A stretch of 64,000 nucleotides of DNA. Source: Escherichia coli (lineage in GTDB: Bacteria > Pseudomonadota > Gammaproteobacteria > Enterobacterales > Enterobacteriaceae). The DNA lies in the NCBI RefSeq assembly GCF_001677475.2, contig NZ_CP015229.1; one strand, 5' to 3'. Shown in pieces: positions 14,315 through 16,328 of the stretch. How positions within the stretch are numbered: the stretch's first letter is position 1; every line of letters starts with the position of its first letter. The notes below the pieces were generated by a model. The model was not told where the DNA came from and searched no databases. It saw nothing but the letters and a program-made list of their open reading frames with translations. Both the position numbers and the translations under genes were made by a program.

Positions 14315-14774
14315 CAAACAATTCCTCTGAAAAGAGCCGATGCCCTGGACAGCGCGGCGTTGTTCACGGGAGGCGTGGTACACTCTGGCTATCGCGGGGC
14401 TTGCAGGACACAAAAATGAAACACTCTGTTTGTTTCATTAATTTTGTGAACTATATCACAATTGATTGTTTGTTAGCCAGATTAGGCCGTGACTTTTATT
14501 GCTGTACAGATTATGTGGTTTTTCAGTGGCATTAAGGGCATATCTTCCCGCCGCCTCTGCATTCCTGTAGAAAATTAATTTGAATATCAATCAATTATTT
14601 TTATCCAGGTGACCATTAAAAAGGTATCAATTTCAAATCAGGCAAAAGTGCTATTTATACCGTAAGATTTATCTAAAGACGTCGGTAGTCAGGGTTTCAC
14701 CTTGCAATGACCGGGTATAAACAGGCAGGAAATTGATAGCAATGAGTCATCATGCATGACACCAATTACTGGCG

Positions 14775-16328
14775 TTGCCGGGCATTATCTTTTTAGTTCT
14801 CTTTCCCATCATTCTGTCGCTATGGATTGCCTTCCTTTGGGCAAAATCAGAAGTGAATAGTCAGCTCCAAACTTTTGCTCAACTGGCACTGGATAAATCC
14901 GAGCTGGTCATTCGCCAGGCAGATTTAGTGAGCGATGCTGCTGAACGCTATCAGGGGCAAGTTTGCACTCCAGCCCATCAAAAGCGAATGTTGAATATTA
15001 TTCGTGGCTATCTTTATATTAATGAATTGATCTATGCCCGTGATAACCATTTTTTATGCTCATCGCTGATAGCGCCTGTAAACGGCTATACGATTGCACC
15101 GGCCGATTATAAGCGTGAACCTAACGTTTCTATCTATTATTACCGCGATACGCCTTTTTTCTCTGGCTATAAAATGACCTATATGCAGCGGGGAAATTAT
15201 GTGGCGGTCATCAACCCTCTCTTCTGGAGTGAAGTGATGTCTGATGATCCGACATTGCAATGGGGTGTGTATGATACGGTAACGAAAACCTTTTTCTCGT
15301 TAAGCAACGAGGCCTCGGCAGCAACGTTTTCTCCGCTGATTCATTTGAATGATTTAACCGTACAAAGAAATGGCTATTTATATGCGACAGTTTATTCGAC
15401 AAAACGCCCAATTGCAGCCATTGTTGCGACTTCATATCAACGTCTTATAGCCCATTTTTATAATCATCTTATTTTTGCGTTACCCGCCGGTATTTTGGGG
15501 AGTCTTGTTCTGCTATTACTCTGGCTACGTATTCGACAAAACTATTTGTCTCCCAAACGTAAATTGCAACGCGCCCTCGAAAAACATCAACTTTGTCTTT
15601 ATTACCAGCCAATAATCGATATCAAAACAGAAAAATGTACTGGCGCTGAAGCGTTGTTACGTTGGCCTGGTGAGCAGGGGCAAGTAATGAATCCGGCAGA
15701 GTTTATTCCGCTGGCAGAAAAGGAGGGGATGATAGAACAGGTAACTGATTATGTTATTGATAATGTCTTCCGCGATCTGGGCGCGTACCTGGCAACACAT
15801 ACCGATCGCTATGTTTCTATTAACCTGTCGGCCTCCGATTTTCATACGTCACGGTTGATAGCGCGAATCAATCAGAAAACAGAGCAACATGCGGTGCGCC
15901 CGCAGCAAATTAAATTTGAAGTGACTGAACATGCATTTCTTGATGTCGACAAAATGACGCCGATTATTCTGGCTTTCCGCCAGGCTGGTTACGAAGTGGC
16001 AATTGATGATTTTGGTATTGGCTACTCTAACTTGCATAACCTTAAATCATTGAATGTCGATATTTTGAAAATCGATAAATCGTTTGTTGAGACGCTGACC
16101 ACCCATAAAACCAGTCATTTGATTGCGGAACATATCATCGAGCTGGCGCACAGCCTGGGATTAAAAACGATCGCTGAAGGCGTCGAAACTGAGGAACAGG
16201 TTAACTGGCTGCGCAAACGCGGCGTGCGCTATTGCCAGGGATGGTTCTTTGCGAAGGCGATGCCGCCGCAGGTGTTTATGCAATGGATGGAGCAATTACC
16301 CGCGCGGGAGTTAACGCGCGGGCAATAA
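14775..16328 (+). CDS. pdeC: c-di-GMP phosphodiesterase (CSS-motif sensor + EAL domain); start assigned at TTG because the upstream ATG frame is interrupted
   Basis: EAL-domain signatures ([23 protein letters not shown]); N-terminal TM helix; in-frame ATG at 14742 followed by TGA at 14757. Confidence 0.85.

Follow-up and report, generated by a model that had tools for sequence, protein, structure and literature searches.

The pdeC gene found in a 64,000-nucleotide stretch of an Escherichia coli genome (contig NZ_CP015229.1; the whole stretch is called the window here) carries an in-frame TGA at codon 6, and our analysis of the sequence suggests that this is very probably a nonsense allele with a null or severely hypomorphic effect, the TTG at which the frame reopens not being a meaningful start of translation. 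A preliminary description of this stretch had pointed to the TGA at codon 6 and to a frame reopening at TTG 14775, with coordinates that all turned out to be exact in the window sequence, and had put forward a nonsense allele with re-initiation, a strain-specific start or a sequencing error as possible explanations.

Identity and integrity of the interrupted gene

Judged by its sequence and by its neighbourhood, the interrupted gene is pdeC (yjcC). It occupies the same locus as the gene of K-12 PdeC (YjcC; Herbst et al. 2018, PMC5897775), with ssb, yjcB, soxS and soxR as neighbours as in K-12 (ssb-yjcB-pdeC-soxS-soxR), its nucleotide sequence is 97.8% identical to that of K-12 pdeC and its conceptual 528-aa product is 97.5% identical to the K-12 protein, with which it shares a CSS-motif domain, an EAL domain and two hydrophobic segments. 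By orthology, the encoded PdeC is a redox-controlled (DsbA/DsbB) c-di-GMP phosphodiesterase with a TM1-CSS-TM2-EAL architecture. The frame of 517 aa that stays open from the TTG (Table 1) matched the CSS-motif domain at residues 29-232 (PF12792, E 4.8e-52) and the EAL domain at residues 262-494 (PF00563, E 2e-70), and the EALLRW motif is present in the translation. Kyte-Doolittle windows exceeded 1.6 only at residues ~5-36 and ~240-265 (528-aa numbering), which is a hydropathy estimate only, and these two hydrophobic segments agree with the TM1 and TM2 of PMC5897775. There is no PdeC-specific NCBIfam model; generic EAL-protein models matched the product, all below their cut-offs. Unlike K-12 PdeC, the window allele has a stop at codon 6, so that the 528-aa protein would be impossible by normal decoding.

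No further stop or frameshift was found in the rest of pdeC. Besides the stop, the window allele has about three private nonsynonymous changes (I300T, V/A354T and Y383H) and three to four private synonymous ones, which is similar to the K-12 allele with its four nonsynonymous and four synonymous private changes; no excess of private nonsynonymous changes was seen in the rest of the gene, in a comparison that has minimal power, the carrier contigs read being identical. pdeC is also the only point-disrupted gene within the 64-kb window, where the other ~55 orthologues of K-12 genes align over their full length and are free of stops, fdhF with its selenocysteine codon excepted. A general, Shigella-like genome decay was ruled out on this basis.

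Table 1. Features of the pdeC locus in the window (positions count from the first nucleotide of the window)
Feature	Position	Strand	Basis
SD-like AGGA within CAGGCAGGA (14722-14730), 11 nt upstream of the ATG	14727..14730	+	Duplex with the 16S 3' end
Ancestral pdeC start codon ATG	14742..14744	+	RefSeq start and conservation in orthologues
Residual mini-ORF, 5 codons (MSHHA) and stop	14742..14759	+	Sequence and translation
Out-of-frame 34-codon ORF (predicted), ATG 14756-14758 overlapping the stop (ATGA)	14756..14860	+	ORF list
Premature stop TGA at codon 6 (CGA>TGA, R6*), UGA-C context	14757..14759	+	One base off the closest alleles
Hairpin, 5 bp, GC-rich, CUGGC-GUU-GCCGG, UUG in the loop and 3' arm	14769..14781	+	Fold of -6.4 kcal/mol
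Remaining pdeC frame, 517 codons and stop, from the TTG	14775..16328	+	ORF list
TM1	14775-14840	+	Hydropathy
CSS-motif domain	about 14859-15470	+	Pfam
TM2	about 15460-15540	+	Hydropathy
EAL domain	about 15558-16256	+	Pfam

Ancestral start codon of pdeC

In all E. coli records that we fetched, RefSeq annotates pdeC as a gene of 1,587 nt (528 aa) with the homologous ATG as its start; these records include those of a K-12-type O16:H48 strain, O157:H7, strain 104, VCSW7, GF4-3 and PCN033. This agrees with the length of 528 aa that had been given for K-12 PdeC and with the placement of its start at the homologue of ATG 14742, and when the window was aligned with pdeC from other E. coli, as had been proposed, its ATG fell on the RefSeq start and the others read CGA where it has TGA.

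One genome per GTDB species was scanned with tblastn, which gave 36 loci, and 24 start regions were read, 22 of them from named Enterobacteriaceae and two from contaminating E. coli-type sequence in assemblies that bear the names of other genera. The taxa covered were E. albertii, E. whittamii, Escherichia sp. E1V33, divergent E. coli, Citrobacter, Salmonella, Enterobacter, Leclercia, Lelliottia, Silvania and Pluralibacter. The tblastn match began at residue 1 in all start regions read, and 23 of 23 orthologues, ranging from Escherichia to Enterobacter (62-90% protein identity), have kept the ATG, alongside a basic N-terminal tail of the form M-[SNT]-x-x-[AT]-R-x-K-x-L that is conserved in all 23 as well. 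Codon 6 encodes Arg (CGA or CGG) in 22 of these orthologues, the exception being one Enterobacter asburiae with CAG. Because the codons vary here (CGA or CGG for Arg6) while the residues are kept, the start region behaves as translated sequence. A purine-rich SD-like motif (CAGGGA/AGGG) precedes the ATG in all orthologues, and the duplex between CAGGCAGGA of the window and the 16S 3' end was predicted at -6.5 kcal/mol, the background median of the window being -2.5 kcal/mol. RefSeq annotation and conservation among orthologues together indicate that ATG 14742 is the true ancestral start, and a K-12 start lying elsewhere, which had been named as a finding that would refute the observation, was rejected on these grounds.

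A single substitution at codon 6

In the window, the ATG at 14742 is followed by AGT CAT CAT GCA and then by the TGA, after which the one frame continues with CAC CAA TTA CTG GCG up to the TTG at 14775-14777; no in-frame ATG, GTG or TTG lies between the TGA and this TTG. The conserved SD and ATG (14727-14744) are intact and the frame closes after five codons. The closest alleles are those of strain 104 and VCSW7, both of which share CAT at codon 4 with the window, and over the start stretch the sole difference from them is a C>T change at 14757, which turns CGA (Arg6) into TGA and which corresponds to C16T in gene-level nucleotide notation, or R6* in the protein. CGA stands at codon 6 in all 10 full-length Escherichia alleles compared, and relative to intact orthologues the disabling lesion is this nonsense codon, set against an open frame in every comparator. 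These alignments support a single-step nonsense mutation, CGA>TGA, at codon 6 of a conserved start region; the nonsense allele that had been listed among the possible explanations is thus upheld by a single change relative to the closest alleles, in a start region conserved across Enterobacteriaceae, and the re-initiation attached to it would be possible but probably weak.

The same C>T change gave rise to the ATG at 14756, where wild-type alleles read ACG, and the predicted SD duplex of this out-of-frame ATG is -2.2 kcal/mol.

Occurrence of the TGA allele

None of 5,425 complete RefSeq E. coli genomes held the exact TGA-bearing 63-mer covering positions 14728-14790, the best match having one mismatch, nor did any of them hold this 63-mer when it was rebuilt with TGA on the K-12 CGT background. 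A degenerate pattern was also run against metagenome contigs: with TGA required it matched none, and with C or T allowed it matched at least 80, with CGA in 80 of 80 among the matches listed. The exact 517-aa product was called on 16 contigs from NCBI and Logan assemblies, and the TGA was confirmed by reading two of these 16, which come from separate SRR and ERR short-read runs (SRR25942434 and ERR3309126): both contigs have the TGA and match the window at 100% identity over 7,554 bases, on which basis the sequencing error that had been considered earlier was rejected. The SRR25942434 contig is common to eight samples, and the stop site at 14757 lies outside any homopolymer. Neither run accession turned up in the literature searched.

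The TGA allele is genuine and belongs to a small lineage that is essentially clonal. This lineage is 97.6% identical over 24 kb to the best complete RefSeq genome and is therefore not represented in the complete RefSeq set. On the best reading of these sequences, the mutation is recent and lineage-specific. Absent from the literature that we found, from the 5,425 complete genomes and from the metagenome contigs, R6* (C16T) is otherwise an ordinary nonsense polymorphism.

TTG 14775 as a translation start

UUG is a poor initiator codon. The predicted SD duplex of TTG 14775 is -1.5 kcal/mol, to be compared with the value for ATG 14742 and with the background median given above. At the same position, codon 12 is TTT (Phe) in 25 of the 80 listed E. 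coli metagenome contigs (31%), and in most other genera it is TTT, TTC, ATC, ATA, CTC or GGC, none of them a start-type codon. Neither of the two marks of a conserved internal start, a start-type codon kept in relatives and an SD, was found at TTG 14775. The hairpin in which the UUG lies does not exceed shuffled sequence in stability (z = 0.01), and since the same bases stand in the aligned wild-type CGA alleles, it is unconnected with the TGA. Most likely, the TTG 14775 start is the first start-type codon that an ORF caller meets after the stop, and not an evolved start; with TTT in 25 of 80 listed contigs and no start-type codon in most other genera, the strain-specific start suggested in the preliminary description was set aside.

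Readthrough and recoding at the TGA

No SECIS or other Rfam match was found near the TGA (14700-14900), even at E values up to 10, and the same search recovered the genuine fdhF SECIS of the window (37626-37680) with a score of 87 bits, so that selenocysteine insertion or another programmed recoding at the TGA was ruled out. No tRNA genes were found in the 64-kb window, which rules out a suppressor tRNA nearby. The slippery site of prfB is CUU-UGA-C; a frameshift-type recoding was rejected as GCA-UGA-C is not a slippery site. According to what Poole, Brown and Tate reportedly showed in 1995, UGA-C is the weakest termination signal in E. coli. Readthrough values measured in K-12 are raised by the weak RF2 variant of this strain, and lower values are to be expected in natural isolates whose RF2 is fully active. 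In K-12 reporters, readthrough of UGA by Trp-tRNA is ~2% at 37 C and ~4% at 25 C (PMC10570021).

Proposed consequence of the mutation

Translation of pdeC would mostly end at the codon 6 stop, the mRNA downstream of it would be mostly untranslated and probably open to Rho termination and decay, and the features of the sequence suggest that the PdeC output would be null or at most a few percent of normal. Two residual routes to a product may exist: Trp insertion at the weak UGA-C stop would give a full-length R6W protein, and a post-termination restart at the SD-less UUG about 15-16 nt downstream would give a protein without the N-terminal cytoplasmic tail, a restart that would compete with the closer out-of-frame AUG at 14756. 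In the tail of the immediate ancestor (MSHHARHQLLA), Arg6 is the only Arg or Lys before TM1; orthologues have one to five such residues N-terminal to TM1 and either residual product has none. By the positive-inside rule, losing the Arg of the tail may lower correct insertion of TM1, although the topology could still be fixed by the strongly basic stretch that follows TM2, and even a low level of protein might then be functional. That the rest of pdeC is intact would be due to the young age of the mutation.

PdeC is a sigma-S-controlled phosphodiesterase that is activated when its periplasmic disulfide is reduced and that limits the production of matrix deep in macrocolonies, where oxygen is scarce. 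Deleting pdeC in K-12 affected macrocolony morphology weakly and left CsgD levels unchanged (PMC5897775), and since this effect is weak, a near-neutral loss is plausible. The window lineage would be expected to behave like a pdeC knock-out or knock-down and to form slightly more curli/cellulose matrix in deep, oxygen-poor biofilm layers, and the allele would be tolerated because this phenotype would be mild.

It is also conceivable, but in our opinion quite improbable, that the allele was selected as a dosage-reducing, biofilm-enhancing variant and does not reflect a neutral loss: the C>T change would then have created a 5-codon upstream ORF ending in AUGA, from which ribosomes would partition between the 34-codon out-of-frame peptide and an in-frame UUG restart, giving a low and possibly condition-dependent dose of tail-less PdeC. 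The condition dependence is suggested because growth state influences UGA readthrough as well as restart.

Alternative explanations

The null or severely hypomorphic allele that we favour has to be weighed against a functional restart allele, in which efficient re-initiation at UUG 14775 would provide active, tail-less 517-aa PdeC at a meaningful level, reduced or differently regulated, so that the gene would not be a pseudogene; we regard this as unlikely. A truncated protein could work in principle, given that TM2+EAL, when TM1 is removed, still inserts into the membrane and keeps its activity (PMC5897775). The UUG is in frame and close after the stop, the whole TM1-CSS-TM2-EAL architecture is kept in an intact downstream frame, and the 517-aa product is entered in NCBI records like any other protein. 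Translation is well known to restart after early nonsense codons in E. coli, even where the start is a UUG or has no SD, the classical examples being lacI and T4 rIIB. As in these restarts, a very short upstream ORF ends a few nt from a potential start; unlike in these restarts, an out-of-frame AUG overlapping the stop competes here with the in-frame UUG. Post-termination scanning, a model reportedly described by Adhin and van Duin in 1990, favours the nearest start, and AUG 14756, which is nearer and also the stronger start codon, should therefore be favoured over the UUG and capture restarting ribosomes out of frame. The UUG itself is a weak initiator, is partly paired and lacks an SD, its duplex being weaker than the background median. 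Moreover, a null allele that is young would be just as likely to have its downstream frame intact, and over 7.5 kb no difference separates the two carrier contigs read; the restart product would also be without any Arg or Lys before TM1, which every orthologue has. What likelihood we leave to a functional restart comes mainly from Shigella flexneri, in which the nonsense 'pseudogenes' dgcE, dgcQ and dgcN still make active proteins initiated downstream of the stop (PMC11327459). Like these genes, the window allele has an early stop in a c-di-GMP turnover gene with a possible in-frame start close behind; the downstream starts in Shigella are, however, ATG/Met, with proteins seen by plasmid overexpression, whereas the candidate in the window is an SD-less UUG known from sequence.

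We consider it very improbable that the stop is leaky enough for Trp-tRNA readthrough to provide useful amounts of full-length PdeC(R6W), which would make the allele a knock-down and not a knock-out. UGA-C at codon 6 is the leakiest stop context and the K-12 reporters cited above do show readthrough, but the yield would be a few percent at most, with K-12 figures inflated by weak RF2 and the RF2 allele of the strain studied here lying outside the window, the R6W product would lose the only Arg of the tail, and no stimulatory structure or SECIS was found after the TGA. An artefact, be it a sequencing or assembly error or a TGA that belongs to the 5' UTR because the natural start of the gene is downstream of ATG 14742, appears exceedingly improbable. 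The absence of the TGA-bearing 63-mer from all 5,425 complete genomes would fit with an error, and the literature yielded neither N-terminal proteomics nor TIS mapping of pdeC, yjcC, pdeC and b4061 being absent from the INRI-seq supplements; against this, separate SRR and ERR assemblies share the TGA and the exact product is encoded on 16 contigs, the 23 orthologues preserve the ATG, the open frame and the residues of the tail at the protein level, and TTG 14775 is itself unconserved among alleles and genera.

Implications and comparison with other pdeC alleles

Calling a 517-aa gene from the TTG hides the nonsense mutation behind what looks like an intact PdeC, and biofilm or rdar studies of this lineage should treat pdeC as probably non-functional, as its sequence suggests. 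The importance of the allele beyond annotation hygiene and strain biology is little. Of the regulatory genes of E. coli and Shigella, those for c-di-GMP turnover belong to the most variable, and R6* is one more natural loss- or reduction-of-function allele of pdeC, confined to one clonal lineage and not described in the literature that we found.

Another natural nonsense allele of yjcC/pdeC, C1552T, is found in Tob1, Fec67 and B2-type E. coli, both commensal and uropathogenic, where it shortens the protein by 11 aa and diminishes its activity (PMC10459773). Both alleles are single C>T premature stops in pdeC of natural isolates, with products that are also both 517 aa long and annotated as PdeC. 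C1552T, however, truncates the C-terminus (...QWMG*), is common and keeps the normal start (PMC10459773), unlike the window allele, which hits codon 6, occurs in one clonal lineage and would need a restart or readthrough for any product. The shared length of 517 aa is a chance match between two unrelated alleles: the other 517-aa PdeC entries in the same 90% protein cluster proved to be the C-terminal truncation and not the window allele.

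Sequence context of the pdeC start and stop

Codon 12 of pdeC (window 14775-14777), the first start-type codon after the premature stop, is polymorphic for Leu and Phe in E. coli, with TTG found in 55 and TTT in 25 of the 80 metagenome contigs listed that cover the pdeC start region. Among the protein-cluster members that we read, Phe12 was present in both allele types, that is in the 517-aa C-terminal truncations ending in QWMG and in some full-length proteins of 528 aa.

Upstream of the gene, a TATAAA motif (14715-14720) located 22-27 nt 5' of the ATG of pdeC may be a -10 element, in which case the pdeC leader would be very short; pdeC orthologues from other genera carry a similar (T/C)ATAA(A/C) motif at about the same distance from their ATG. 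A simple sigma-70 scan of 14380-14900 detected no full promoter. At the other end, pdeC (+) and soxS (-) are convergent, with stop codons only 2 nt apart (16326-16333), and their transcripts must therefore overlap. If the early stop were to trigger premature Rho termination in pdeC, then less antisense transcription might enter soxS.

The in-frame TGA of fdhF is a genuine programmed selenocysteine codon, and the SECIS element that directly follows it provided the internal positive control for the search that found none at the pdeC TGA. All the Rfam matches to sraL, STnc630 and naRNA4 that are listed in the table exceed the gathering score.

Features located in the window
Feature	Position	Strand	Remarks
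yjbS	7221-7418		71.6% amino-acid identity to K-12; neighbours 98-100%
Orphan ORF	13180-13761	-	193 aa; inside low-GC islet between ssb and yjcB
sraL	17197-17337	-	Rfam match; downstream of soxR
espX5	21070-22359		91.4% amino-acid identity to K-12; neighbours 98-100%
naRNA4	24589-24660	+	Rfam match; REP-derived
fdhF	35948-38092	-	In-frame selenocysteine TGA
SECIS of fdhF	37626-37680		SECIS_2 match, 87 bits
rpiB 3' remnant	about 45687-45893		Sole part of rpiB left
naRNA4	57807-57884	-	Rfam match; REP-derived
STnc630	63552-63717	+	Rfam match

Relation to other genomes

Over 24 kb of the window (17000-41000), identity to complete RefSeq E. coli genomes peaks at only 97.6%, a value at which many unrelated strains are tied, and protein identity to K-12 is mostly 98-100%. 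The strain thus appears to belong to a lineage that has no representative among the 5,426 complete E. coli genomes. Divergence from K-12 is unusually high within the window for espX5 and yjbS.

Between yjcS and yjdP (45323-45962), the entire als operon (alsRBACEK) is absent together with the 5' part of rpiB, and unrelated AT-rich sequence precedes the rpiB remnant.

Between ssb and yjcB lies a low-GC islet (13100-14000), with 28-36% GC compared to 48-61% in its flanks. The full islet is rare (22/5,426 complete E. coli genomes); its closest copy is that of the guinea-fowl strain GF4-3 (97.6%), the remaining copies being at about 90%. Pfam and PADLOC searches returned no match for its orphan ORF. 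Since an AbiGi-family gene occupies the same spot in strain PCN033, our observations suggest that this spot is a small hotspot of integration, which may receive defence genes.

pdeC fragments in foreign assemblies

Fragments of E. coli-type pdeC were also found on small contigs of two GTDB representatives, labelled Flavobacterium paronense CECT 8460 (2501-3366; 98% amino-acid identity) and Thiomicrorhabdus cannonii HH3 (227-382; 92%). Both assemblies are almost certainly contaminated by E. coli.
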